Assembly: GCF_050920415.1 (NCBI RefSeq)
Contig: NZ_CP169309.1
Direction: 5' to 3' (one strand)
Source of the DNA: Escherichia coli
GTDB taxonomy: Bacteria > Pseudomonadota > Gammaproteobacteria > Enterobacterales > Enterobacteriaceae
Length of the DNA: 64,000 bases
Part shown: positions 5,765-40,306 of the stretch, one piece after another
How positions within the stretch are numbered: position 1 is the first letter of the stretch
Layout of the letters: each line of letters opens with the position of its first letter
Program-made: the position numbers and the translations under genes
Notes under the pieces: generated by a model
Database searches by the model: none
What the model was told of the DNA's origin: nothing
What the model saw: only the letters and a program-made list of their open reading frames with translations

Positions 5765-6093
5765 GTTACATCCTCCCGCAATTAAGAGCGCGATATGATA
5801 ACCAGACCGGGTCGGTCCAACAACGTATTACCCAAAATTCCAGTAATAAGTTCCAAATATTGCCGATATTTTAAGCAAAATGCTTATGCATGATTATTCA
5901 TTCACGATATTAATAATGTAACTTATATTTTCGTGAAATCTGTCACTGAAGAAAATTGGCAACTAAAGGTTAAAACCGTTATAACACAGTCACCGGCGCA
6001 GAGGAGACCATGCCGGATTTAAGACGCGGATGCACTGCTGTGTGTACTGTAGAGTCTGGCGGATGTCGACAGACTCTATTTTTTTATGCAGTT

Positions 6094-7002
6094 TTAACTT
6101 TGCAGATAGCCGCATTCTCGCCGAAATTGCGTGATTAATGACGCGGTCAGTGGTGTCTGGCGACTATCACGCCGCTGAATCAAATAATAGGCCGCTTTCG
6201 GTAAAATTTCGATAACCGGCAACATCACCAGCCCCTGTCCGTGCAAGGGATCGCAGCCCATTTCTTCAGGTAGTATGCTGAGAAAATCGCTTTTTGCCAC
6301 CAGACTGATACAGGCTGAAAACGTCTCGCAGACTACGCCGACCTGTGGCGTTTGCGCCTGATCGTCAAGCAATTCACTCAACTGTTTGTAGTAGCTGCCG
6401 TGTGGCGTCGGCATTGTCCAGCTGTAGTCCAGTAACTGTTTGATCGAACGGGCACCAATGGCGGGATGTCCCGGGCGGCAAAAGATCGCGAATTGCTTTT
6501 CCAGTAATTTCTCAAAAGTAAATTCGTGGTCGTAGGGTCCCTGATAATAGGTATTGATGGTGAAATCCAGTTCTCCCTGGCGCAATTCATTAATCATCGA
6601 CACCAGTTGCCCTTCCATAATGCGTACTTTTACCTGCGGATGCTGCTGATGAAAACGAGATATGACAGCTGGCATCAGACTGCGGGAAATACTGGCCCCC
6701 ATGCCGATATTAATTTGCCCTGCCAGTTGCCCTTGTCGTTGGCGAATATCCTCTTGCGCTGCGCGCAGCTCTTCAAGAATAAGACTGGCGTGCTGATAAA
6801 AACTTTCGCCGGCATCAGTTAACGTCACGCCTTTACTACGGCGAAAAAAGAGTTGTGCCGCTAACCCTTCTTCCAGCTCCTGAATAGATTTACTCAGTGC
6901 CGGTTGCGACATATTCAACATTCGGCTCGCTCCGCGAATGCTGCCCTGACGAGCCACTTCAACAAAAGCCCGAATTTGATGAATTTTTACCTGAAAAGCC
7001 AT
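6094..7002 (-). CDS. abgR: LysR-family transcriptional regulator AbgR
   Basis: 302 aa; N-terminal LysR HTH; divergent from abgABT. Confidence 0.85.
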   Translation of the reverse strand: MAFQVKIHQIRAFVEVARQGSIRGASRMLNMSQPALSKSIQELEEGLAAQLFFRRSKGVTLTDAGESFYQHASLILEELRAAQEDIRQRQGQLAGQINIGMGASISRSLMPAVISRFHQQHPQVKVRIMEGQLVSMINELRQGELDFTINTYYQGPYDHEFTFEKLLEKQFAIFCRPGHPAIGARSIKQLLDYSWTMPTPHGSYYKQLSELLDDQAQTPQVGVVCETFSACISLVAKSDFLSILPEEMGCDPLHGQGLVMLPVIEILPKAAYYLIQRRDSRQTPLTASLITQFRRECGYLQS

Positions 7003-7177
7003 GACGCCACCGATAACCGTTATTTATCAGACCAAAGAAACTGGCATCTACTTTAATGCAGATGATTGTGTCAGGGTAATTTATGAACGGTTAAAACTGT
7101 GAAAAATCAGTTAGTGATAAGTAAAAACTATCACTACGTGAACCGGGTCACATTTTTTACTGATGACGGGAAAGGTT

Positions 7178-8488
7178 ATGGAGTCTTTGAATCAATTTGT
7201 TAATTCGCTTGCCCCAAGATTATCGCACTGGCGACGTGATTTTCATCGCTATGCAGAGTCTGGCTGGGTGGAATTCCGCACAGCCACCCTTGTTGCAGAA
7301 GAATTGCACCAGCTCGGCTATTCACTGGCGCTGGGCCGCGAAGTCGTTAATGAAAGTAGTCGGATGGGACTACCTGATGAACTCACTCTACAGCGCGAAT
7401 TCGAGCGCGCTCTTCAACAAGGTGCGTTAGCACAATGGATCGCGGCTTTTGAAGGTGGTTTCACTGGCATCGTCGCCACCCTGGATACCGGTCGCCCCGG
7501 TCCGGTGATGGCTTTCCGTGTCGATATGGACGCGCTGGATCTCAGTGAAGAACGGGATGTCAGCCATCGCCCCTACCGCGACGGTTTTGCGTCATGTAAC
7601 GCCGGAATGATGCATGCCTGTGGTCATGATGGACATACCGCTATTGGGCTTGGGCTGGCGCACACCCTTAAACAGTTCGAGTCCGGACTTCACGGCGTCA
7701 TCAAACTGATTTTTCAGCCTGCAGAGGAAGGTACGCGTGGCGCGCGGGCGATGGTCGATGCAGGTGTAGTGGATGATGTTGATTATTTTACTGCCGTGCA
7801 CATTGGCACTGGCGTACCTGCGGGCACCGTGGTGTGCGGCAGTGATAATTTTATGGCAACAACCAAATTTGACGCGCACTTCACTGGTACCGCCGCTCAC
7901 GCAGGCGCAAAACCACAAGACGGTCACAATGCCTTACTGGCGGCAGCACAAGCAACTCTTGCGCTGCATGGAATCGCCCCGCACAGCGAAGGGGCTTCCA
8001 GAGTAAACGTGGGCGTTATGCAGGCAGGAAGCGGTCGTAATGTGGTTCCTGCCTCGGCGTTGCTGAAAGTTGAAACTCGAGGGGTCAGCGACGTCATCAA
8101 TCAATATGTTTTTGACCGTGCACAACAAGCGATTCAGGGCGCAGCAGCCATGTATGGTGTCGGCGTTGAAACTCGGCTGATGGGTGCAGCTACCGCCAGT
8201 TCTCCTTCGCCGAAATGGGTCGCATGGTTACAAAGCCAGGCGGCTCAGGTCGCGGGGGTCAATCAGGCCATTGAACGTGTTGAAGCGCCTGCGGGTTCCG
8301 AAGATGCCACATTAATGATGGCCCGCGTGCAGCGACATCAAGGGCAAGCCTCCTACATGGTATTTGGCACACAGCTGGCGGCAGGTCATCACAACGAAAA
8401 ATTCGATTTTGACGAGCAGGTTCTCGCTATTACCGTCGAAACGCTGGCGCGCACCGCGCTTAATTTTCCCTGGACGCGAGGTATCTGA
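7178..8488 (+). CDS. abgA: p-aminobenzoyl-glutamate hydrolase subunit A (M20 peptidase family)
   Basis: M20/amidohydrolase-like sequence; start set at MESLNQF within 441-aa track ORF. Confidence 0.85.
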   Translation: MESLNQFVNSLAPRLSHWRRDFHRYAESGWVEFRTATLVAEELHQLGYSLALGREVVNESSRMGLPDELTLQREFERALQQGALAQWIAAFEGGFTGIVATLDTGRPGPVMAFRVDMDALDLSEERDVSHRPYRDGFASCNAGMMHACGHDGHTAIGLGLAHTLKQFESGLHGVIKLIFQPAEEGTRGARAMVDAGVVDDVDYFTAVHIGTGVPAGTVVCGSDNFMATTKFDAHFTGTAAHAGAKPQDGHNALLAAAQATLALHGIAPHSEGASRVNVGVMQAGSGRNVVPASALLKVETRGVSDVINQYVFDRAQQAIQGAAAMYGVGVETRLMGAATASSPSPKWVAWLQSQAAQVAGVNQAIERVEAPAGSEDATLMMARVQRHQGQASYMVFGTQLAAGHHNEKFDFDEQVLAITVETLARTALNFPWTRGI

Positions 8489-9933
8489 TGCAGGAAATCT
8501 ATCGTTTTATCGACGATGCGATTGAAGCCGATCGCCAACGTTATACCGATATTGCTGATCAAATCTGGGATCATCCAGAAACACGTTTTGAAGAGTTCTG
8601 GTCAGCGGAACATCTGGCTTCGGCGCTGGAATCTGCAGGCTTCACCGTTACCCGCAACGTAGGCAATATCCCAAATGCCTTTATTGCTTCGTTTGGTCAA
8701 GGCAAACCGGTTATCGCCCTGCTGGGGGAATATGACGCCCTGGCAGGTTTAAGTCAGCAAGCAGGGTGCGCGCAACCTACATCCGCGACGCCCGGTGAAA
8801 ATGGTCACGGTTGCGGACACAATTTGCTCGGAACCGCCGCCTTTGCCGCAGCAATAGCCGTCAAGAAATGGCTGGAACAATATGGGCAAGGCGGCACGGT
8901 GCGCTTTTATGGTTGTCCTGGCGAAGAAGGCGGCTCGGGTAAAACGTTCATGGTCCGCGAGGGGGTATTTGATGATGTGGATGCGGCACTCACCTGGCAC
9001 CCGGAAGCCTTTGCCGGTATGTTCAATACCCGCACGCTGGCAAACATTCAGGCATCATGGCGCTTTAAAGGGATCGCAGCACATGCTGCAAATTCCCCTC
9101 ATTTGGGACGCAGCGCCCTTGATGCCGTAACGTTGATGACCACTGGCACCAACTTCCTCAACGAACATATTATTGAAAAAGCGCGCGTACACTATGCCAT
9201 CACAGAGAGCGGCGGGATCTCGCCCAACGTGGTCCAGGCGCAGGCAGAAGTGCTTTATCTTATCCGCGCCCCCGAAATGACCGACGTGCAGCATATTTAT
9301 GATCGGGTAGCCAAAATCGCCGAAGGTGCGGCATTGATGACCGAAACCACGGTTGAATGCCGCTTCGACAAAGCCTGTTCCAGTTATCTCCCTAATCGCA
9401 CCTTAGAAAAGGCCATGTACCAGGCTCTGTCCCATTTTGGAACCCCTGAATGGAAATCCGAAGAACTGGCTTTTGCGAAACAAATTCAGGCTACGCTCAC
9501 CCCCAACGATCGGCAAAACAGTCTGAATAATATCGCCGCAACCGGTGGAGAAAACGGCAAGGCTTTTGCACTACGTCATCGTGAAACGGTACTGGCGAAT
9601 GAAGTCGCTCCATATGCCGCCACCGATAACGTGCTTGCGGCATCAACTGATGTCGGCGACGTCAGTTGGAAACTGCCTGTTGCCCAGTGTTTAAGCCCCT
9701 GTTTCGCCGTCGGTACACCGCTACATACGTGGCAACTGGTTAGCCAGGGGCGAACGTCTATTGCTCATAAAGGAATGCTGCTGGCGGCGAAAACTATAGC
9801 AGCAACCACACTTAATCTCTTCATTGATTCAGGGCTATTGCAAGAATGCCAACAAGAGCATCAGCAAGTTACGGACACGCAACCGTATCACTGCCCTATC
9901 CCGAAAAACGTGACACCGTCACCTTTAAAATAA
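8488..9933 (+). CDS. abgB: p-aminobenzoyl-glutamate hydrolase subunit B
   Basis: 481 aa M20 family; start overlaps abgA stop (ATGA). Confidence 0.85.
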   Translation: MQEIYRFIDDAIEADRQRYTDIADQIWDHPETRFEEFWSAEHLASALESAGFTVTRNVGNIPNAFIASFGQGKPVIALLGEYDALAGLSQQAGCAQPTSATPGENGHGCGHNLLGTAAFAAAIAVKKWLEQYGQGGTVRFYGCPGEEGGSGKTFMVREGVFDDVDAALTWHPEAFAGMFNTRTLANIQASWRFKGIAAHAANSPHLGRSALDAVTLMTTGTNFLNEHIIEKARVHYAITESGGISPNVVQAQAEVLYLIRAPEMTDVQHIYDRVAKIAEGAALMTETTVECRFDKACSSYLPNRTLEKAMYQALSHFGTPEWKSEELAFAKQIQATLTPNDRQNSLNNIAATGGENGKAFALRHRETVLANEVAPYAATDNVLAASTDVGDVSWKLPVAQCLSPCFAVGTPLHTWQLVSQGRTSIAHKGMLLAAKTIAATTLNLFIDSGLLQECQQEHQQVTDTQPYHCPIPKNVTPSPLK

Positions 9934-25773: not shown

Positions 25774-26478
25774 TCAACCTACCTTGCTTGATCCTGGAAA
25801 ACATGAGATCGGCAATGGATTTGGACGCGGGAAACGCAAGCGACAACCGCTTAGGCGGTGGCTGCACCTGTCTAATGTTGGATCGTTTGTCGGCTCGTCT
25901 TTGTCTGTAGCAACTGGCCCGCCAGAGTACGCACAGCCATCACCTCTATACTGCCACTGGCAAACGTCAGCAAGAATGGTGCGGCCTGGGATCACCGCCT
26001 TATCTGCATCAATTGGCGTTGACAACTCATATTGCACCTGATCCGCTGTTTCTTCACTCATGGCCTCTATAACGTAAAAGGACACCGCCTCAATAGATGG
26101 ATCAGCGTCAGGATTGCCATTTGGGAAGTTAACAGCGTCAAGGTATTTCACTTCCACCTGGCGGCGCGTAACCTTCATGCCTCGAAGGTCGTTATAGTCG
26201 GTATTCATCCCGGTAATGAGTCCGCCAATGTTTGCTACAGCCATTTGAGGGCGAGAATAAACTCCTTCGTTTTTCATTTCGAAGCCAGTAGCCTCGATTG
26301 GATAGCTGTTATAAGCCACGCCCTTCCAGATGACCGGACCGTAATAACCATTCGCGCCGGAATGGAAGCGGACAACCTCGCCACCAAGGGGAGTAAGGTC
26401 CAATTCGAACAAGTCAATGATTGCGCCGACTCCCGCATCGACGGAATCAATAATCATCTCTGTAGGTATATTGCGCAT
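25774..26478 (-). CDS. minor tail protein L
   Basis: 234 aa from MRNIPTEMI with AAGGTGA RBS; lambda gpL-like C-terminal Cys motif. Confidence 0.82.
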   Translation of the reverse strand: MRNIPTEMIIDSVDAGVGAIIDLFELDLTPLGGEVVRFHSGANGYYGPVIWKGVAYNSYPIEATGFEMKNEGVYSRPQMAVANIGGLITGMNTDYNDLRGMKVTRRQVEVKYLDAVNFPNGNPDADPSIEAVSFYVIEAMSEETADQVQYELSTPIDADKAVIPGRTILADVCQWQYRGDGCAYSGGPVATDKDEPTNDPTLDRCSHRLSGCRLRFPRPNPLPISCFPGSSKVG

Positions 26479-26616
26479 TTTATCACCTTGTTGTTTTGTG
26501 ATCTGCATCACACCGTGAATGCCAAAATGGATTGATAGCGTGATTTACAATATGTATATTTTACTCAAACGAACGGTAGTAAACAAAATGGCACAGTTTG
26601 GAACAGGATAGGACAC

Positions 26617-26775
26617 TATGAGATCCGCAAAATACGCAGAAAAAGTTTTCGTTGAAGTGAAAGGCGACATGAAAAAATTTATGGATGTTCTTATCAAAGA
26701 GATGGGAAAACCGTTCCATATAGCCGAACGTCAGTATTACGCTTGCAAGGCTAATAGCTACAACAGATACGCATG
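26617..26775 (+). CDS. moron cassette A small protein A1 (52 aa)
   Basis: AGGA RBS; opposite strand to tail operon; MRSAKYAEKVFVEVKGDMKKFMDVLIKEMGKPFHIAERQYYACKANSYNRYA. Confidence 0.4.
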
Positions 26776-26891
26776 ACAATAAACACAAAGGTAACACTAT
26801 GCAAAAATATCGTCTTGATGTGTGGATGGCTGGAAATAAAGATTGGGAAGGTTTCGGATTATTTGACAGCCGCGAACTGGCTAACGACTAA
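26772..26891 (+). CDS. moron cassette A small protein A2 (39 aa)
   Basis: ATG overlaps A1 stop (ATGA); weak otherwise. Confidence 0.25.
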   Translation, partial: HDNKHKGNTMQKYRLDVWMAGNKDWEGFGLFDSRELAND

Positions 26892-26963
26892 GGGGAAAAA
26901 CTTGTTAACTTCTTTGGACGGGCCAGGGAGTTTTAAGTAACCCCGGTACAGATAGAAAATAAG

Positions 26964-27152
26964 GTGGAAGAGATGAAATACGATATTGATAACGACGCTT
27001 GCTTTAAACAAAACTTTGCGGATTCTATGGATCAGTCTTGCCCTGAAATACACGCACACGGTTTCCCGGCAGATAATCCAGACATGAAACGCGAATACGA
27101 AAAAGCGGCGAAAGATTTCTGCATCGACAATCTGGGCGCATTCGATAGATAA
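26964..27152 (+). CDS. moron cassette A small acidic protein A3 (62 aa)
   Basis: AAGGTGGA RBS; four Cys; no recognised domain. Confidence 0.45.
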   Translation: MEEMKYDIDNDACFKQNFADSMDQSCPEIHAHGFPADNPDMKREYEKAAKDFCIDNLGAFDR

Positions 27153-27161
27153 GGCGGCAAT

Positions 27162-27410
27162 ATGGCGAGGCGAAAACATAGCGATTATATGTACACGCTG
27201 AAGCAGGCCGCCCGCCTTATCGGTTATCATGAACACGAATTTATTGATTTGCTGATTGAGCGCGGGATTTTATACCAGGTCTGTTTAACGCTGTACCCGA
27301 AAGCGAAATACTTGCAGGAAAAGTTATTCATCATCATGACGGATGAAAACCAGGTTAATCACTCATTCGTCACTGCCAAAGGCGTTAATTATCTGCGCGA
27401 TAACTTATAG
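27162..27410 (+). CDS. moron cassette A putative HTH DNA-binding protein A4 (82 aa)
   Basis: AAGGCGG RBS; YTLKQAARLIGYHEHEFIDLLIERGIL resembles an HTH. Confidence 0.45.
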   Translation: MARRKHSDYMYTLKQAARLIGYHEHEFIDLLIERGILYQVCLTLYPKAKYLQEKLFIIMTDENQVNHSFVTAKGVNYLRDNL

Positions 27411-27420
27411 GTGACAGATT

Positions 27421-27537
27421 ATGAAAATAGAAGTTTTGGCGCTAATAGTAATGGGATTGATAGTATTTGGTGTTCATGCTGTAGATCTGGACTGGAAAAC
27501 GATAGCAGAAAATATAGCGTTAATGGAAATGGAATAA
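27421..27537 (+). CDS. moron cassette A small hydrophobic peptide A5 (38 aa)
   Basis: AGGTGA RBS; N-terminal hydrophobic helix. Confidence 0.35.
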   Translation: MKIEVLALIVMGLIVFGVHAVDLDWKTIAENIALMEME

Positions 27538-27542
27538 TAATA

Positions 27543-27568
27543 ACCCCGCTTCGCGCGGGGTCGTGTTT
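27543..27568. terminator. bidirectional rho-independent terminator
   Basis: ccccgc-ttcg-cgcgggg hairpin with T-rich flanks on both strands. Confidence 0.55.
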
Positions 27569-27752
27569 ATACGCCATCAAGTAAAAATAAAACTTCCTTG
27601 CCTTCTCTTGATCTGCATCCTACATAACCGTCACCCATGTCATGAAGATACCAGGTCTCACCATTATCAGCTTTTACAGTAAGATCGTTGATTTCATAGT
27701 CGTCAAACAATGTAAAAGCGCCCGTGCGGTCCACTACACAAATAGCATACAT
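27567..27752 (-). CDS. hypothetical small protein downstream of gpM (61 aa)
   Basis: GGAGG RBS before ATG at 27752; upstream ATG of track ORF overlaps M. Confidence 0.4.
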   Translation of the reverse strand: MYAICVVDRTGAFTLFDDYEINDLTVKADNGETWYLHDMGDGYVGCRSREGKEVLFLLDGV

Positions 27753-27765
27753 ATTGACACCTCCA

Positions 27766-28119
27766 TTAATTGACAACTTGCTCAAAAGTTGCGTTTAGCG
27801 TGTACAAAGACCCGTCTTTAGTCATGCTCCATCGGCGGCAAACAAAAAGCCTTTGCACGTTATCCATCGACGGCGACCAGTAAAAAGCCTCGACCGCGCC
27901 GCGCGCCCTCAAGAATGCTTCCGCCTGGATTGCTACGTTTTCACCATCACCACATCCGGCGCTACTGCCTTTAAATACCAGGGTGTAGCTATCAAGCAAT
28001 GGATTGATACCTTTTACCTGTCTTTGCTCATAACCATCGCCCAGCTTAACAACGGATACGTCCGGCTCCCTGGTCACGCTGTAGCTTCGTTGTGGCGTCC
28101 ATCTGAACACTTCCGGCAT
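27766..28119 (-). CDS. minor tail protein M
   Basis: 117 aa; lambda gpM-like, C-terminal FEQVVN as in lambda M. Confidence 0.82.
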   Translation of the reverse strand: MPEVFRWTPQRSYSVTREPDVSVVKLGDGYEQRQVKGINPLLDSYTLVFKGSSAGCGDGENVAIQAEAFLRARGAVEAFYWSPSMDNVQRLFVCRRWSMTKDGSLYTLNATFEQVVN

Positions 28120-28308
28120 AAAACCCCCATAAGTTACATTTTGTATATATCTTTACGCGCTTCTACGCGAAAAATAAGATCTTCATCACAATGATTATAG
28201 CTAGTTTACAAAATGGCTTCACATAGCACACAACAAGATGTATATAAAAAGCAAGAAGAAAAGCAGTACCAACGAAGGAGGCCCAAAAATGAAACGCTAT
28301 GAGTAGTA

Positions 28309-28443
28309 ATGCTAAACAACGCATTCGAACAAGTGGAAATAGCAATCGTTAAGGGTTTCGACGACGCATTTAAATACGGTCAATTCATGATTAATGCAAA
28401 AGAAGATGAATACCGTGATTTCTTCCTGAAGGCTCTTAATTAA
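28309..28443 (+). CDS. moron cassette B small protein B1 (44 aa; possible antitoxin-like partner)
   Basis: preceded by GGAGG and a 5-codon uORF; 20 nt upstream of B2. Confidence 0.35.
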   Translation: MLNNAFEQVEIAIVKGFDDAFKYGQFMINAKEDEYRDFFLKALN

Positions 28444-28462
28444 GAATAATCGGGGGTGAGCT

Positions 28463-28717
28463 ATGAAACTGGTAGCGATTGACAAAAACCTGAAAGTACA
28501 GAAAAACGCACAGGACCGGATTATCAAGAAAGGTAAGGAACTGCTTAAAGCATTTTTGAAGAAAGAGGCGCGCCCCAAAAAGTTACGCGATGGTTATGGC
28601 TTTAAATTCGATATCAATCATGACTGGCGGCTGTTCAGCGAAGACCTCAAAGTCTGGTTAATAATCGATCACCTGGAATATAACAGGCACTGCGGGGTTA
28701 AAGGGGCGCATAAGTGA
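28463..28717 (+). CDS. moron cassette B protein B2 (84 aa), RelE/YoeB-like toxin fold candidate
   Basis: GGGGGTGA RBS; basic N-terminal helix then HDWRLF and DHLEY segments resembling YoeB/RelE by eye. Confidence 0.4.
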   Translation: MKLVAIDKNLKVQKNAQDRIIKKGKELLKAFLKKEARPKKLRDGYGFKFDINHDWRLFSEDLKVWLIIDHLEYNRHCGVKGAHK

Positions 28718-28725
28718 GGCGGGAT

Positions 28726-28818
28726 ATGGAGGACGATAAATTCACCTGGCGGGAGATCTGGAATATTTGGTTGGTGATGTTTTCTCGCAGCTATATAGCC
28801 AGAAACGGAAGATTGTAA
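28726..28818 (+). CDS. moron cassette B small peptide B3 (30 aa)
   Basis: GAGG RBS; Trp-rich hydrophobic peptide. Confidence 0.3.
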   Translation: MEDDKFTWREIWNIWLVMFSRSYIARNGRL

Positions 28819-28836
28819 TTTGCGGAGGAAAATAAA

Positions 28837-29013
28837 ATGAAAAACCCGGCAAATAAAAGCAATGTAAAACGTATAGCCTGGATCGTGAAATGGATGGATA
28901 GTAAAGGAGACACATATACTGAACCATTTTTCAAACATACTGATGCAGTATTTGCAAGAAGCGTAAGAGGCGGGAAAATTGAAAGAGGATATACAAGTTT
29001 TGAGAATAACTAA
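28837..29013 (+). CDS. moron cassette B small basic protein B4 (58 aa)
   Basis: GGAGG RBS; followed by terminator. Confidence 0.4.
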   Translation: MKNPANKSNVKRIAWIVKWMDSKGDTYTEPFFKHTDAVFARSVRGGKIERGYTSFENN

Positions 29014-29020
29014 AATATAA

Positions 29021-29050
29021 CCCCGGCATTGTACCGGGGTTTTGTTTATT
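29021..29050. terminator. rho-independent terminator (bidirectional)
   Basis: ccccgg-cattgta-ccgggg hairpin followed by TTTTGTTTATTT. Confidence 0.6.
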
Positions 29051-31385
29051 TGCGGCGCGGTTGCAATATTCCCCCTGGTCTTTGTGATTCCCTTGTTATC
29101 ATTTTCATTGCCACACGTTCCATTGTTTGTTCAAGTCTGCGGCTATCTTCGTCGCTAAATCCGTTTGTGGTCTGAATGTTAATATTGACAGGCATACTAA
29201 TACCGCCGCCACCAATATCACGACCAGGTATAACCCTGCCATTCTCGCCAGGAATCATGTATTGATTGCCGTTAGACGTCTGGAATAGCTCCGGCCTGTT
29301 GTGTTCCCCTACACGGTACATGTTGCCACCAATGACGCTACCACCATTAAAGCGCCCGCCGCCGAAAATGGATGTTGCCAGTGACATGATCGCAGTAAGC
29401 GCCGCCGAGCCAGCCGCCGCCCAGCTACCGCCAGTTGATGCCGCTGTCGCTGCCGCCGCCGGGGCCGCCGCCGCAGCAATGCTTCCCTGAGCGGCAACCG
29501 CGCTTGCCGTTGTGCTGGCCTGCGTGGCCTTGCTTTGTGTCTCCATCATGATTTGATCTGCTATCCAGTTGGCAGCTATGTCCGAAAGTCTGTTACCGAT
29601 ATTCCCAAGTATATTGCTTCCTAAGTTAGCAAAAACATCACTTAATGATTGAGTGCCGTTTAGCAGGCCAACAAGGGCGTTACTCATACCACCTTTAAGG
29701 CCATTAACGCAATCACCGATCAGGCCGTTAGTATCGCTTTGCGCCTGCCATTGCTCCCATTTTAGATCGCGAATCTGTTGCTCATAGGCCAACAATTCCT
29801 GTTTCTGTTGCGCTTCGGTAGCGCCCAGGTCTATAAGCATTTGCTTACGGACGGCCCATTCATTTTGCGCCTGCTGGATGGGGTCAACTTCGCCTTTTAG
29901 CTGGTCCATCGGGCTAACTATTTGCGACCATTTATCACGCAATTCATCTACCGGAATTTGTGCTAACTCTTCTTTTAGCTCCTTGCCGATTCCCTTTTGA
30001 GCGGCGCGGTATTCAAGGAGTGTAATTTTCCCCTGGGCGAATGCAGCATCAATGGCCTTGCCGTTCTCTAACGCTTTGCGCATGGCGGCTGCGTCTTTGT
30101 TGTACTGGTCAGAAACGCTTATGCCTTTGTCACCAAGCCGATCAGCTTCAGTTTTCTTCTCTTTTTTCTGTTTTTTCGGCTTGTCTACTGGCTTGTCGAA
30201 TCCGGTAATAGTTCCGTCATTGGCGGCATTCTGTTCACTTTTCCTTGCTTCTTCTGTAGCCTGGATTGCAGCGGTCAGATCATCCTGTAATTGCATGACC
30301 TTACCAACGGTCTTACCATATTTCTTCTCATAGTTGCTGTCGTATTCGTCGGTTTGTTCTCCTACCACCTCTTTCATCCATTTGTAGCCGTCCATTAGCG
30401 CTTTGATTGGTGTCACCATTGCGATGATCTTCTCTGCCACCTCACCAGCCTTGATTCCGACATCCTCAAATATATCAATGAATTCGCTGCCAGCCGTCTT
30501 CAGGGTGATAAAGCAGGTTTTAGCGAAATCAGCACCATCACCTAAAGCCTTAACACCTTTCGTGACAAGATCGATACCAGCAACAACCGTATCGGATACA
30601 CCAAAAAGATCGTCCAACTGTTCGACAAGCCCCATAACTTCGACTTTAAGCTCATTCAGGGCCATACCGGATGTGCGCGGCAACTGCGCGAACTTCTCGT
30701 TTGTTTCCTGCGTAGCCGCCTGGATTGCGTTAACCATCCTTTCTGCCGTGATCTTACCGTCCAGCATTTCGGCGCGGAATTGGCCCATAGATAACCCCAT
30801 CTGGCGGGCCATTGTCTGTACGATGGTCGGGGTGTTCTCTAACAGGCTATTGAATTCTTCAGCACGAAGCACGCCGCCGTCGATAGACTGACGGAATTGA
30901 CGCATTGAGTTTGACATCTGCTCCGCAGATGCGCCGCCCAACGCCCCCATTTTCTGAATCGTACCTACCAGGTTAAGCAATTGCCCTTCAGTGGCGGACG
31001 TGTTCTTCAGGGAGATAGCCAGGCCTTGCCACAGATCCCCGGTATCCTTCATGCTTTGGCCTGTTTCTTTTGATATTGCTTTCAGGCCGTCGAAAACCCG
31101 CCCGGCGGACTCCGCATCGCCCGTAAGCATTTTGATTTTTACGCGAAGCATTTTTGCTTGCTCCGCCATATCCATAAATTGGCGCACAGCCTCCGCAGCA
31201 ATTAGCAGATGGATAACCCTGGTTAGTGCTTTGATTGATGTCTTCAGTGTGTTTACCTGGCGATCTGCCTGTTTAGCACCGCGCTCTATACGGTCAAAGG
31301 CCTGGTCTGCCTGTCGTTGTGCTACAAGAAGTTGTCCTGTTTTTGCGTCAACTTCGTAATAAATTGTGCCTACACTGGTAGCCAT
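29046..31385 (-). CDS. tail tape measure protein
   Basis: 779 aa, coiled-coil rich, Ala/Gly-rich hydrophobic segment near C-terminus; upstream of M. Confidence 0.85.
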   Translation of the reverse strand: MATSVGTIYYEVDAKTGQLLVAQRQADQAFDRIERGAKQADRQVNTLKTSIKALTRVIHLLIAAEAVRQFMDMAEQAKMLRVKIKMLTGDAESAGRVFDGLKAISKETGQSMKDTGDLWQGLAISLKNTSATEGQLLNLVGTIQKMGALGGASAEQMSNSMRQFRQSIDGGVLRAEEFNSLLENTPTIVQTMARQMGLSMGQFRAEMLDGKITAERMVNAIQAATQETNEKFAQLPRTSGMALNELKVEVMGLVEQLDDLFGVSDTVVAGIDLVTKGVKALGDGADFAKTCFITLKTAGSEFIDIFEDVGIKAGEVAEKIIAMVTPIKALMDGYKWMKEVVGEQTDEYDSNYEKKYGKTVGKVMQLQDDLTAAIQATEEARKSEQNAANDGTITGFDKPVDKPKKQKKEKKTEADRLGDKGISVSDQYNKDAAAMRKALENGKAIDAAFAQGKITLLEYRAAQKGIGKELKEELAQIPVDELRDKWSQIVSPMDQLKGEVDPIQQAQNEWAVRKQMLIDLGATEAQQKQELLAYEQQIRDLKWEQWQAQSDTNGLIGDCVNGLKGGMSNALVGLLNGTQSLSDVFANLGSNILGNIGNRLSDIAANWIADQIMMETQSKATQASTTASAVAAQGSIAAAAAPAAAATAASTGGSWAAAGSAALTAIMSLATSIFGGGRFNGGSVIGGNMYRVGEHNRPELFQTSNGNQYMIPGENGRVIPGRDIGGGGISMPVNINIQTTNGFSDEDSRRLEQTMERVAMKMITRESQRPGGILQPRRK

Positions 31386-31536
31386 GATTTAACCTCATGC
31401 AAAATGTGATCTATGCATCTATTTTATACAAAATGTCTTTATTTTAACGATACCGTTTTGTATAGATGATGTAGGGAAAGATAGAAGAGATGCAGGAAGG
31501 ACGGATGTCCCGGAGGAAGTGAAAGAGGATAAGGAA

Positions 31537-31620
31537 ATGAGAAACGTAAACTACCGTCCCAACGAATATGAACGCTATGCGGACCTTATCGAAGAAATGT
31601 TAAAAGCACTTAAAAAATAA
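31537..31620 (+). CDS. moron cassette C small peptide C1 (27 aa)
   Basis: AGGATAAGGAA RBS; MRNVNYRPNEYERYADLIEEMLKALKK. Confidence 0.3.
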   Translation: MRNVNYRPNEYERYADLIEEMLKALKK

Positions 31621-31681
31621 ACAATATGCGTGTATAACTAAGTTAAAGGAAGCATTTAGCAAATCAGAATAATTACAGGGG

Positions 31682-32101
31682 TTGATTATGAAACGGTTAG
31701 CAAAAATGGTACTTGCTGTGATTGCTGCACTGGCATTTAACGCGAACGCTAACGAGGCCATAAACATTAACTGTGAAGAAGTGGCAAACCATGTAGCCGC
31801 ATATCACGACATGATCAAAAAAGAACCAGCCGCACCCACAATTCTTTTTAAGGCAATTGATAAAAATTTTGAAGGGAAACCAGTTTGTGCTCGTTGGTTT
31901 AATTATGGCCTTGTAAACGAGGCTGCTGTAGGCGTAGTCTTTGAAAACAACAGCGAAATAAAAAACAGGATAGCTAACGAGTGTAAAGCAAATAAAGTTG
32001 CTTTCGCTGAAAGAATTTTTAATGAAGGCGGCGCTGGTGCAAAAAATCACGCAATTGTCGATTTAGGTAACGGTTTTATTGATATTGTTAGAATCAAATA
32101 A
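31682..32101 (+). CDS. moron cassette C secreted Cys-containing protein (139 aa)
   Basis: signal peptide ending AFNANA; four Cys; followed by terminator; opposite strand to tail genes. Confidence 0.5.
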   Translation: MIMKRLAKMVLAVIAALAFNANANEAININCEEVANHVAAYHDMIKKEPAAPTILFKAIDKNFEGKPVCARWFNYGLVNEAAVGVVFENNSEIKNRIANECKANKVAFAERIFNEGGAGAKNHAIVDLGNGFIDIVRIK

Positions 32102-32108
32102 GACAAAC

Positions 32109-32131
32109 GCCCGGATCTACCGGGCTTTTTC
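32109..32131 (+). terminator. rho-independent terminator
   Basis: gcccgg-atcta-ccgggc followed by TTTTT. Confidence 0.6.
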
Positions 32132-32803
32132 TTGCTCACGATTTTTCATTCTTTCGAGTACCTTTTTAGCGGCCTCCATTTGCTCGTCATAAGCACGTTT
32201 ATTTATGTGAACGTTTGGTTTGCTTCTTTCGTTTCTTTCGTCTGGCGGCGTTTTAGCACGCACAGCGGCCCTGTATCCGGTCATAGTCATATTCCATGCT
32301 TCGGATTCTGATAACCCCAGGTGAGCTACGGCAGAATAAACGAATTCAAGAACGTCAAATGTCGGCTTATACTCCCCCTCCCGGATCTCCCCGACGTCTT
32401 CTTCCGGGCCGTCTCCGATTAATCCATGGTACATGCAATGCTGCGCCAGCGTGATAACGTCATCAGTAGGCATCAAACCGGGCTTTAGTCGTAACTTGCC
32501 TGAAGGGGTAAACCTACATTCGCCCAATAACGAGCCTATTTCGTCGTCTGAGCAACATTTAAGGATGTGCATAGATGTTTGCACCATCTCACCATAACAC
32601 CGCGCCAGAATACGATTGCGTAGGTCTGGATCTGCTGGCAAGCGTGATGGATATTTGCCACCGTGGATTGTTGCGAAGTATTCGACCAGTTCGCTGTCAC
32701 CACCGATCTTAGCCATTGCAGCGAAGCACGGATTGAATACATAACGCTTGCCGTCTACCACCGCAGCGAATTGCCCGGTACGAACATGAATCATAATTAT
32801 CAC
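32117..32803 (-). CDS. putative tail assembly chaperone (G/GT-like position)
   Basis: 228 aa between major tail and tape measure genes; assignment by synteny only. Confidence 0.4.
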   Translation of the reverse strand: MIIMIHVRTGQFAAVVDGKRYVFNPCFAAMAKIGGDSELVEYFATIHGGKYPSRLPADPDLRNRILARCYGEMVQTSMHILKCCSDDEIGSLLGECRFTPSGKLRLKPGLMPTDDVITLAQHCMYHGLIGDGPEEDVGEIREGEYKPTFDVLEFVYSAVAHLGLSESEAWNMTMTGYRAAVRAKTPPDERNERSKPNVHINKRAYDEQMEAAKKVLERMKNREQEKAR

Positions 32804-37967: not shown

Positions 37968-38864
37968 TTACTCCCAATCTTCGCCATATTTAGCGTGCGC
38001 AACTTTATAGTTTTCTTGCGCCCGATTTAATATTCGTTCGTTTAATATGTTACCGTCTTCGTCAACTAATACGGTAATCGTGCTACATTTGCAGTTAATA
38101 GAATTTGGGGATCTGCTCCACCATTCGCGCTGCTCATCTATGGTGTATGTTTTCCCGTGCCGTTGCGCGTGCGATAGCCTGGTTGTCGGTGACAATGCCG
38201 AAATGTGCATTTGCATAGTGCGCAGATTAAATTCTTCTGTCGCCGCTTCTGCCTCATCCATACGCGCTGTGCGTAACGCTGTGCATATTTCAGTTCGGGC
38301 AATACGTTTGCATCTGTATAGCGGTAACTGCGTATCCTGATTCAATGTGCGCGCTATTTCCAGTGGATTTAAACCACGGGCCATGCCTTCAGTTAATCGG
38401 CGGGCCATATCCTTTTTTATCTGTGCGGTCAGACCGCGCATCTCTTCAAATACACGGGTACGCACCAGGGCAAGGCGTGTGCGGTAAGTTGTGCTGGATA
38501 GCACGGCGGATACATCAGGATAAGCGCTTGAATATGTGACAGACTGGTTAGCAAGGTTGGCGTATTCCTGCGCGGTCCCTCGCTGATATGCAACCTTCAC
38601 GTACTCCTGCCAAAACCAAAAACTTTCCGGGTCGGTTAGCTCGAATATCTCATCAATCATGTTGCTGGCATCCTCCAGCATGTCGTGCAATTCATCCATG
38701 TAAATCTGGAAGGTGTATTTCTTATTAACAGCCAGGCTATATTGTATTCTGTCCAGTATGGCGATATATGGATCGGCTATTTTCTTCAGGCAGGATTTAA
38801 AACGCTTAATAGCGCCCGACCGCAACTTACCTGTCATGGTCGGGTCTTCGGTGTTAGATGGCAT
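37968..38864 (-). CDS. head morphogenesis protein (Mu F / SPP1 gp7-like)
   Basis: about 298 aa following portal; start position uncertain (overlaps portal 3' end). Confidence 0.6.
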   Translation of the reverse strand: MPSNTEDPTMTGKLRSGAIKRFKSCLKKIADPYIAILDRIQYSLAVNKKYTFQIYMDELHDMLEDASNMIDEIFELTDPESFWFWQEYVKVAYQRGTAQEYANLANQSVTYSSAYPDVSAVLSSTTYRTRLALVRTRVFEEMRGLTAQIKKDMARRLTEGMARGLNPLEIARTLNQDTQLPLYRCKRIARTEICTALRTARMDEAEAATEEFNLRTMQMHISALSPTTRLSHAQRHGKTYTIDEQREWWSRSPNSINCKCSTITVLVDEDGNILNERILNRAQENYKVAHAKYGEDWE

Positions 38865-40227
38865 TATCGCGGAGGGCGGTATTCTCCTGATTATTTTCTT
38901 CACCTTCATCATCGTTTTCCTCGTCTTCCAGTTCTACTTCACTAGCTGGGCCATCGTATCCGGCAGCTTCGCGGATCTCATCGCCGCTAAATATTTCCTC
39001 ACCAGTAGCGAGACATGCCTGATTGATTTGCGCCATCTTGTGTGCCGCTTCCAGTAGTTCGGCTTTTGTCATAGCATTCAGGTCATCCCATAAAACTGAT
39101 ATATCGACTGGCATACTGATAAGGCGTAGATCTGCCATCTTGCGGAATAGTTCTTCAAGCTCGCCTCCGATTTCCTCACGACGGGTCATACAGCGATTAT
39201 TGAAGTAGCGGAGGTCTTCAGTTGATGCGCGTTCACCCTGCTGATTGCCAACCAGAATACGCGTTGGAATGTCGATACCAGCGGCGGCGGTTTGCAGGTT
39301 GACGTCATAGGTTGCAGATGGATCGGCTACGGCAGTGACCAGCGGGCTAACGGTAGCTCCCTGTAATGCCATCATCACATCATTACCTTTGTTTATATCC
39401 TCTGCCGCTTCATTGAATTTTTCGCGTAGCTCTGTAACGTCGCAACCGTATGTTGCAGCCAGAGAACGGAAATCAATCTCTTTGTCGAATGAGATAGCTA
39501 GTTGACGTGCGGCGTTTTTAAGGAATGACTCACCGCTACCACCTTCCACTTTCTCCAGCGAAACGAAAGCGTTATAGGATGGCTCAAGGAAAGCGATAGC
39601 ATCATCAGAATAGTCACCAAATATAAAGATCCGGTCTGGATGGATTTTCCTTGCTATGGTCTTATTGTTGATGCGTTCTTTGTATTCCCACCATGTCGGC
39701 AGGCCATAGTTTTCATTATCCGGGTTTTCTTCGAAGTCCTTCGGCGTCAGAGCGCCAGCCCACACAGGGGTGAATTTGGCAATGCCTGCACCTTTCGTCA
39801 CTGGCTTATCCCACGGCTGGCTATCTCTGACATGAATTAACAGGCCCGCATAACGACCGATGAGGCGGCGGCGATCACATTCAGCTATGACGCGCCAGAA
39901 TCGATTATCGAATCGTTTTTTGATTTCTCTTTCCCACGGCGTTTCCTTTTCTGCTTTCTCGTCTTCCGTGCCTTCAATCATCGCTGGCCTGGTGCGCCAA
40001 CACGTCGTGATAATCTTTTCAATAGCACCGTGAGCGATACCACCGCGACGATACAGCTTATAAAGATCATCATAGGTGATCTCTTCTTTGAATCCGTATT
40101 CACTCCAGGCGGCATCACGCTTTGCATCAATACCCATTGAGAAAGGATGCGCGGCGGCATAGCGTGCAAAGGCCACCTGACGTTGTGACAAGGCAGCATT
40201 AACCGCCAATTCTAAATTGGATGGCAT
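38854..40227 (-). CDS. portal protein
   Basis: about 457 aa from MPSNLELAV with AGGAG RBS; acidic C-terminus; directly downstream of TerL. Confidence 0.7.
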   Translation of the reverse strand: MPSNLELAVNAALSQRQVAFARYAAAHPFSMGIDAKRDAAWSEYGFKEEITYDDLYKLYRRGGIAHGAIEKIITTCWRTRPAMIEGTEDEKAEKETPWEREIKKRFDNRFWRVIAECDRRRLIGRYAGLLIHVRDSQPWDKPVTKGAGIAKFTPVWAGALTPKDFEENPDNENYGLPTWWEYKERINNKTIARKIHPDRIFIFGDYSDDAIAFLEPSYNAFVSLEKVEGGSGESFLKNAARQLAISFDKEIDFRSLAATYGCDVTELREKFNEAAEDINKGNDVMMALQGATVSPLVTAVADPSATYDVNLQTAAAGIDIPTRILVGNQQGERASTEDLRYFNNRCMTRREEIGGELEELFRKMADLRLISMPVDISVLWDDLNAMTKAELLEAAHKMAQINQACLATGEEIFSGDEIREAAGYDGPASEVELEDEENDDEGEENNQENTALRDNAI

Positions 40228-40306
40228 AATGTTTACTCCTGAATGCATGTTTACGCGTTGCTACGCGAAAAATAGAAAAATTCGTGATGGATTTGTGAGA
40301 TGGTTT

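Follow-up and report, generated by a model that had tools for sequence, protein, structure and literature searches.

A gene with a predicted RelE/ParE-type toxin fold persists without its neighbour in an antisense tail-operon cassette of mEp021-group coliphages

HK97 gp15 is a moron that lies beside the tape measure gene in the tail region of its phage. In phage phi80, the taiEcA "noncontiguous operon" places lysogen-expressed genes antisense within the late operon, where they have expression signals of their own and their expression is reduced by late transcription (PMC11364771). Among the few RelE-superfamily enzymes that are free of an antitoxin is RegB of phage T4, an RNase that reshapes mRNA pools, for which no antitoxin partner has been reported (PMC3014915, PMC2807027) and perhaps none is needed (PMC3014915). 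Here we describe a locus that can be compared with all of these. It lies in a 64,000-nucleotide stretch of an Escherichia coli chromosome with a prophage (contig NZ_CP169309.1), which we refer to as the window, and consists of a plus-strand cassette of four small open reading frames (ORFs), B1 to B4, that is set antisense inside the minus-strand tail operon of this prophage. Judged by its protein family, B2 belongs to the RelE/ParE toxin superfamily, and the central observation of this study is that B2, a gene with a predicted toxin fold, persists without its neighbour B1.

We read B2, tentatively and at a little short of an even chance, as a phage-specific RelE-fold effector that is probably RNA-directed and does not need an obligate antidote. 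The cassette would be transcribed separately and would probably be expressed in the lysogen, while late transcripts running from the tape measure gene to the M-like minor tail gene would have to pass the hairpin that closes the cassette and would cover the cassette in antisense; late read-through during lytic growth would probably dampen cassette expression. B2 itself would most likely bind RNA and cleave it, with the ribosome as the probable site, and its effect would be conditional or mild: it would exclude other phages or tune phage or host mRNAs and would not be constitutively lethal. B1, small, acidic and co-transcribed, might then modulate B2 without being its obligate antidote. A broader version, which we regard as speculative and rather improbable, would make the whole B2 family (Pfam PF24732) a phage-only branch of the RelE superfamily consisting of antidote-free, sequence- or context-specific ribonucleases like T4 RegB; in mEp021-group prophages, one of them would provide standing RNA-level exclusion or regulation in the lysogen from an antisense cassette that is silenced by late read-through, with B1 and/or B3 as small modulators of a new kind and not as antitoxins. 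If B2 is an active RelE-fold nuclease that is tolerated by lysogens without a dedicated antidote, a temperate phage would add to the few antitoxin-free RelE-superfamily enzymes like RegB, and PF24732, so far merely a name, would gain a function. That a gut-prevalent group of coliphages so strictly retains an antisense cassette at this point, with the tape measure gene on one side and the M gene on the other, also suggests that the cassette serves in regulation or defence and that this function is linked to late transcription.

With taiEcA, the cassette shares its orientation against the late operon and the possession of its own, here predicted, expression signals; it differs from both taiEcA and HK97 gp15 in that the proteins are unrelated and in that the unit is found in every group member recovered. 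B2 resembles RegB as a phage-encoded member of the RelE superfamily, and a further likeness lies in the gene context of distant B2 homologs, which are found in arrays of small genes on contigs partly matching large virulent phages. In contrast to B2, RegB is larger, has a two-histidine site and is not among the listed fold matches of B2, while B2 of the window is located in a temperate phage and antisense to late genes.

Family, fold and conserved residues of B2

B2 aligns with the Pfam family PF24732 (ParE_like) across the whole model (positions 2-67 of 67, residues 19-75 of B2; E 6.9e-11, score 42.4), and this is its sole Pfam match at E <= 10; the family itself is a grouping by sequence and fold. 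B2 also matches phrog_1525, labelled "unknown function" in PHROG, and PGAP names some of its homologs "ParE family toxin-like protein". The family is already catalogued in Pfam and in PGAP naming; we found no functional study of it, and neither "PF24732" nor "ParE family toxin-like" occurs in the papers searched. A search of 1.84 billion representative proteins returned 8 B2-family proteins and a profile search of a larger protein collection added a handful more at 23-50% identity, which makes the family narrow at the sequence level; all homologs found carry the same precomputed ParE_like domain. NCBIfam gave no match for any of the four cassette proteins, and PADLOC returned a single non-significant match (PDC-M02A, E 0.014).

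The AlphaFold model of B2, built on an 18-sequence alignment, has a predicted local distance difference test score (pLDDT) of 88.9 and predicts two strands followed by a helix (18-32), three further strands (47-50, 55-59 and 65-69) and a final helix (70-81). As modelled, B2 has the compact alpha/beta fold with an N-terminal helix on an antiparallel sheet that characterises the RelE/ParE superfamily. YoeB took the top rank in a Foldseek search, non-significantly (E about 0.1), and in both fold searches HigB, YafQ, RelE and YoeB ranked above the named ParE toxins. Direct comparison of the B2 family with single YoeB and YafQ sequences (hhalign) gave short local matches with probabilities <2%. The protein is strongly basic (isoelectric point (pI) 9.9, net charge +10). 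The first-pass annotation of this DNA had likened the 84-aa protein to RelE/YoeB toxins by eye on account of an HDWRLF and a DHLEY segment; both segments are present, and the resemblance proved right at the level of the superfamily, given the full-length PF24732 match and the first, if non-significant, rank of YoeB.

Within the phage-restricted B2 family, K40, L41, R56, H70 and N74 do not vary even at 23% identity, and all five are present in the window, while position 73 is either Y or F. R56 lies on the predicted middle strand (55-59), and H70 and the aromatic residue 73 directly follow the last strand at the start of the final helix. In YoeB, the residues to compare are R65, H83 and Y84. 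The catalytic set of RelE comprises K52, K54, R61, R81 and Y87 (PMC2807027). By topology, K40, R56, H70, N74 and the aromatic residue 73 fall at the sites of catalytic residues in RelE, YoeB and YafQ; B2 would therefore likely be RNA-cleaving, and by eye its predicted residue set looks more like a nuclease site than like ParE. The likeness to the ribosome-dependent mRNA endonucleases RelE, YoeB, YafQ and HigB, with the conserved arginine on the middle strand and the histidine and tyrosine just after the last one, is a matter of topology only. Unlike these enzymes, B2 has one predicted N-terminal helix instead of two and is not accompanied by a partner of the RelB, YefM, DinJ or HigA type, its neighbour B1 being dispensable in nature.

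B1 and B2 as a possible toxin-antitoxin pair

The 44-aa ORF upstream of B2 had initially been proposed as its partner antitoxin. In the window, this ORF is what remains of a 51-aa gene that lacks one T between positions 28301 and 28302, a 1-nt deletion at codon 5 that turns the original reading frame into a 5-codon stub. All aligned relatives (7/7) carry the extra T, read ATG AAA CGC TAT GTA GTG GTA ATG and encode a 51-aa product (MKRYVVVMLNN...). Contig L011 (GCA_012846615.2), whose sequence is 99.7% identical along 2 kb, also carries the T and encodes a complete 51-aa B1 together with an identical B2 allele. The 44-aa ORF begins at the former Met8, 2 nt after the stop codon of the stub, and the residues lost from the N-terminus of B1 include Y4, V6, V7 and M8, which are invariant in homologs. 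It has no Shine-Dalgarno sequence (SD) of its own, so that the good ribosome binding sites ascribed to the ORFs hold for B2, B3 and B4, each of which has an SD at normal spacing, while the AAGGAGG upstream of B1 now serves the stub. Judged from the arrangement of these codons, it is possible that a truncated B1 product arises by re-initiation.

The loss of B1 next to an intact B2 has happened in three independent ways: by the frameshift of the window, by a change of the start codon from ATG to ACG in PRO_A-1370, and by a clean deletion in UMNK88 that fuses the SD of B1 to the ATG of B2. This is contrary to the expectation that an antitoxin is not lost while its toxin stays intact. Intact B1 is acidic (pI 5.1) and has no Pfam family match, and AlphaFold predicts a single compact beta-beta-alpha-beta domain (two of the five models being of low confidence) that does not correspond to a ribbon-helix-helix (RHH), Phd/YefM, helix-turn-helix or AbrB fold. 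A fold search with B1 yielded generic matches only and retrieved no antitoxin. With its 51 aa and without any antitoxin family or fold, B1 is not recognisable as an antitoxin composed of a DNA-binding domain and a toxin-binding tail. An RHH antitoxin, suggested by the sequence pattern of B1, was rejected on the strength of the predicted fold and of the lack of RHH proteins among the fold matches.

Comparisons among relatives point in the same direction. The same B1 sequence occurs in Magus and 09-00049, whose B2 is 62% identical to that of the window, and in STEC308, whose B2 is 99% identical, so that from the alleles at hand those of B1 do not track those of B2. B1 is also more conserved than B2 (ratio of nonsynonymous to synonymous polymorphism, pN/pS, 0.07 vs 0.22), which is the opposite of what toxin-antitoxin systems usually show, and no B1 homolog was found beside any distant B2-like gene. 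A classic toxin-antitoxin pair of B1 and B2 is thus unlikely because B1 is not antidote-like, is broken in the window and is missing in a relative; the proposed partnership, set against a frameshifted gene without antitoxin family or fold, without co-variation with B2 and lost from natural genomes with intact B2, did not hold up.

Other candidates for an antidote or a compensating change were considered and dismissed. H53 of B2 does not compensate for the B1 frameshift, since contig L011 combines this B2 allele with a B1 that is not broken, and B3 is no obligate antidote, since M1/5, N921, PRO_A-1370 and Ec190 lack B3 while B2 is intact in all four. A search against Rfam over positions 26400-32300 returned nothing at E <= 1, and there is therefore no known RNA antitoxin or small RNA in this region.

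Several observations weigh against our reading of B2 as an RNA-directed effector without an obligate antidote. The profile similarity to RelE/ParE/YoeB models that had been anticipated was found for ParE_like; B2 matches none of the Pfam models RelE/ParE_toxin, YoeB_toxin or YafQ_toxin, and sequence searches of the PDB with B2 alone and with its family profile found nothing meaningful, which sets it apart from the RelE/YoeB/YafQ/HigB endonucleases. The residue equivalences between B2 and RelE were placed by eye from topology. B1 lies next to B2 in the same direction, with 17-23 nt between the two genes (19 nt between the 44-aa ORF and B2), and their products have opposite charges, as in type II toxin-antitoxin systems. 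At 19 of the 22 loci classified, B1 matches over its length and has a start codon, and 17 of those 19 also have an intact B2. The two N-terminal lesions of B1 could still give a 44-aa product from Met8, and B2 of UMNK88 or its promoter could be silently inactive. Lastly, the protein collection holds about 10 clusters of truncated B2, as expected if B2 is costly.

The alternative closest to these observations is a classic type II toxin-antitoxin module in which B1, as a small acidic antitoxin of a new type, binds and neutralises B2, with prophage stabilisation or abortive infection as its role; we consider it unlikely, if worth serious attention. It would account for an acidic B1 lying about 20 nt upstream of a basic RelE/ParE-fold B2 in one operon, for the cassettes with B1 and B2 only in M1/5-type prophages, for the finding that the 7 phage records with B1, out of 50,697, are precisely those with B2, and for the purifying selection on both genes. 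It would also agree with PAR (L019) and Ecol_244 (L022), which share one B2 frameshift near codon 24 (about 898-1150 in these loci) and keep B1 intact; PGAP still names the remaining C-terminal B2 fragment of 53-54 aa "ParE family toxin-like protein". Prophage-borne ParE/RelE toxin-antitoxin systems are known, PfiT/PfiA being a reported example. What argues against such a module is the lack of any antitoxin family or fold in B1, the clean deletion of UMNK88 with B2 intact behind the SD of B1 together with the two further independent N-terminal lesions, the absence of allele tracking, the stronger conservation of B1 than of B2, and the distant B2 homologs that have no B1.

It is also conceivable, though doubtful to us, that B2 has kept the RelE fold but lost nuclease or toxin activity and instead acts as a nucleic-acid-binding regulator or anti-defence protein in the phage life cycle, with B1 to B4 being unrelated accessory genes. 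All mEp021-group genomes recovered have the B1-B2 unit, and always in one position, more like a core feature than a sporadic moron; this would fit such a role, as would the homologs among small unannotated genes of virulent-phage-like contigs, the lack of a significant match to any PADLOC defence model and the tolerated loss of B1. However, invariant K, R, H and N residues together with the aromatic position 73 in a RelE fold look more like an active site than like a binding surface, a low-GC unit that lies antisense and ends in a terminator of its own is typically seen for accessory genes expressed by lysogens, and at least two complete genomes have a frameshifted B2 along with prophage tail genes that are still annotated.

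That B2 is a ParE-type poison of DNA gyrase is very improbable: the superfamily fold, the Pfam name ParE_like and the PGAP product name speak for it, but in the two fold searches the named ParE toxins come below HigB, YafQ, RelE and YoeB, H70 and the aromatic residue 73 after the last strand are by eye more YoeB/YafQ-like than ParE-like and as a conserved His/Tyr motif suggest catalysis, no RHH ParD-like partner gene is present upstream of B2, and B2 homologs are absent from 72,556 plasmid records whereas ParDE is a classic plasmid stabilisation module.

Cassette layout, expression signals and distribution

The window is a segment of the E. coli chromosome in which the host abgABR genes (6000-9000) match E. 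coli genomes at 100%, and by sequence comparison its prophage belongs to the mEp021 group (mEpimmI) of temperate coliphages, with late structural genes on the minus strand. The cassette (Table 1) stands out from this operon by a guanine-plus-cytosine (GC) content of 39.5%, compared to 50.8% and 50.3% in the flanking genes, and by a reversed GC skew. It had first been described as a 930-bp insertion where H and M normally abut; the plus-strand unit is there, at a slightly different size, but the flanking genes abut only by comparison with lambda, and the unit is kept in every relative recovered. The ORFs of 44, 84, 30 (counted from ATG) and 58 aa were all located on the plus strand as described. 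Alignments of 6-8 relatives gave pN/pS values of 0.12 for B3 and 0.19 for B4 in addition to those of B1 and B2 reported above, and variable columns of all four ORFs fall mostly on third codon positions. Because of these low ratios and of the third-position variation, all four ORFs are real genes under purifying selection.

Table 1. Features of the cassette and its flanks in the window.
Feature	Position	Strand	Remarks
M-like minor tail gene, 117 aa	27766-28119	-	Downstream flank of the cassette, late-operon strand; counterpart in contig L011 is Pfam Phage_min_tail; PGAP name in relatives "phage tail protein"
Cassette, 926 bp	28120-29045	+	Fills the space between the M-like gene and the tape measure gene
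22-nt near-palindrome TTTTCGCGTAGAAGCGCGTAAA	28152-28173	-	32 nt upstream of the M-like start codon
Candidate sigma-70 promoter TTCACA-17 nt-TATATA	28218-28246	+	-35 at 28218-28223, -10 at 28241-28246; TG directly before the -10; read from sequence
SD AAGGAGG (28275-28281) and original B1 start codon (28289)	28275-28306	+	Now a 5-codon stub, ATG AAA CGC TAT GAG TAG; TAG at 28304-28306
B1 remnant, 44 aa	28309-28443	+	Residues 8-51 of a conserved 51-aa acidic protein (phrog_29810)
B2, 84 aa	28463-28717	+	RelE/ParE superfamily by sequence (Pfam PF24732 ParE_like, phrog_1525); SD GGGGGTGAG upstream
B3, 30-aa Trp-rich peptide MEDDKFTWREIWNIWLVMFSRSYIARNGRL	28726-28818	+	From ATG; listed as 34 aa from GTG; GAGG SD
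B4, 58-aa basic protein	28837-29013	+	GGAGG SD; variable end of the cassette
Intrinsic-terminator hairpin, bidirectional	29019-29041		Closes the cassette; the stop codon of the tape measure gene is 5 nt away
Tape measure gene, 779 aa	29046-31385	-	Upstream flank of the cassette, late-operon strand; annotations in relatives

B3 (FTWREIWNIW...ARNGRL) is kept in most relatives and missed by most annotations; it is absent or a remnant in M1/5, N921, PRO_A-1370 and Ec190, reduced to its last 22 residues in PAR, GN05505 and KKa019, and to the last 20 in Ecol_244. The family matches of B4 are weak (PHROG E 0.002; Pfam Phage_ORF5 E 0.014).

The candidate promoter of the cassette, TTCACA-17 nt-TATATA, has a -35 element that is identical in 8/8 aligned sequences and a -10 element with one change in two of them, and it was missed by a consensus scanner because its -10 does not have a T at position 6. 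It is better, and better conserved, than the motif ACATTTTGTATATAT quoted in the first-pass annotation, which lacks a usable -35 and varies among relatives. The strong terminator noted there was confirmed as a hairpin that folds on the plus strand at -17.0 kcal/mol (z -3.9), with the U-rich tail UUUUGUUUAUUU behind it; on the minus strand, the hairpin has -16.8 kcal/mol and a weaker U tract. With its own terminator, a base composition unlike that of its flanks and a conserved candidate promoter, the cassette shows hallmarks of a moron, but it is not present in some relatives and absent in others: the B1-B2 core was found in all 7 phages and 32 E. coli genomes, save for UMNK88, which lacks B1. 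B2 is the only gene of the cassette that is constant.

Cassette DNA matches only the mEp021 group among phages, that is, the 7 of 50,697 phage records mentioned above, and has relatives in 29-32 of 5,426 complete E. coli genomes. Its location does not differ among the relatives recovered, namely 7 phages and the 32 E. coli genomes with this M/H gene pair, all of which have it; it is therefore fixed in the group, unlike an insertion that occurs sporadically. The mEpimmI group has been described (PMC11893012), and term searches of the text and supplements of that paper found no mention of the cassette genes and no mEp021_67/68 tags in the supplements.

What follows B2 varies within the group: nothing in M1/5, whose cassette consists of B1 and B2 only, B3 and B4 in the window, a zinc-ribbon protein and another ORF in mEp021, and an HNH endonuclease in mEp515 and E. 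coli E21845. The HNH gene starts directly after B2, with an overlap of about 13 nt with its end, and precedes B3 (1006-1512 in mEp515, locus L006; 2449-2931 in E21845, locus L028); its position between B2 and B3 suggests a mobile, homing-type insertion into the cassette.

The contigs that carry distant homologs of B2 resemble rV5-like and RaK2-like virulent phages in patches and only in part, and the homologs are found there among long runs of very small genes that have no annotation. On two contigs with partial matches to RaK2-like jumbo phages (L009, 1606-1962; L013, 2607-2957), the B2-like gene always follows a conserved protein of 116-118 aa (ATRD[IL]AR...), which could be its partner in this lineage. 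Another distant homolog, P0103 (locus L015, 2864-3255), lies 20 nt downstream of the gene for an acidic CxxC...CxxC mini-protein of 38 aa, with a ParA-like gene about 2.4 kb away; P0103 has weak tblastn matches (E 0.01-0.04, 32-36% identity) on three non-mobilizable plasmids of 41-109 kb.

A pattern search brought up the near-palindrome upstream of the M-like gene. It is nearly invariant in 8 relatives, one of which differs at one position, and the pattern TTTTCGCGTAG-N-A-N-CGCGTAAA occurs exactly twice in the window (28152-28173 and 40250-40271, both on the minus strand) at a chance expectation of 0.01. Both copies are intergenic on the late-operon strand and lie just upstream of a gene start, that of the M-like gene and that of the ORF at 38854-40248. 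As RNA, they form weak folds (-10 and -6 kcal/mol), and possible roles are those of an operator, an RNA hairpin or a translational control site. A repeat search of the upstream region detected no repeats at the thresholds of the tool.

Two more low-GC plus-strand islands are located among the minus-strand tail genes, at 26536-27765 (41% GC) and 31386-32116 (38% GC), so that the tail operon has three antisense cassettes together with that of B1 to B4. The former contains several small ORFs, and the product of one of them (82 aa, 27162-27410) has counterparts in relatives that bear the annotation KilAC-domain antirepressor; the latter encodes a 137-aa protein (31688-32101) with a signal-peptide-like N-terminus.

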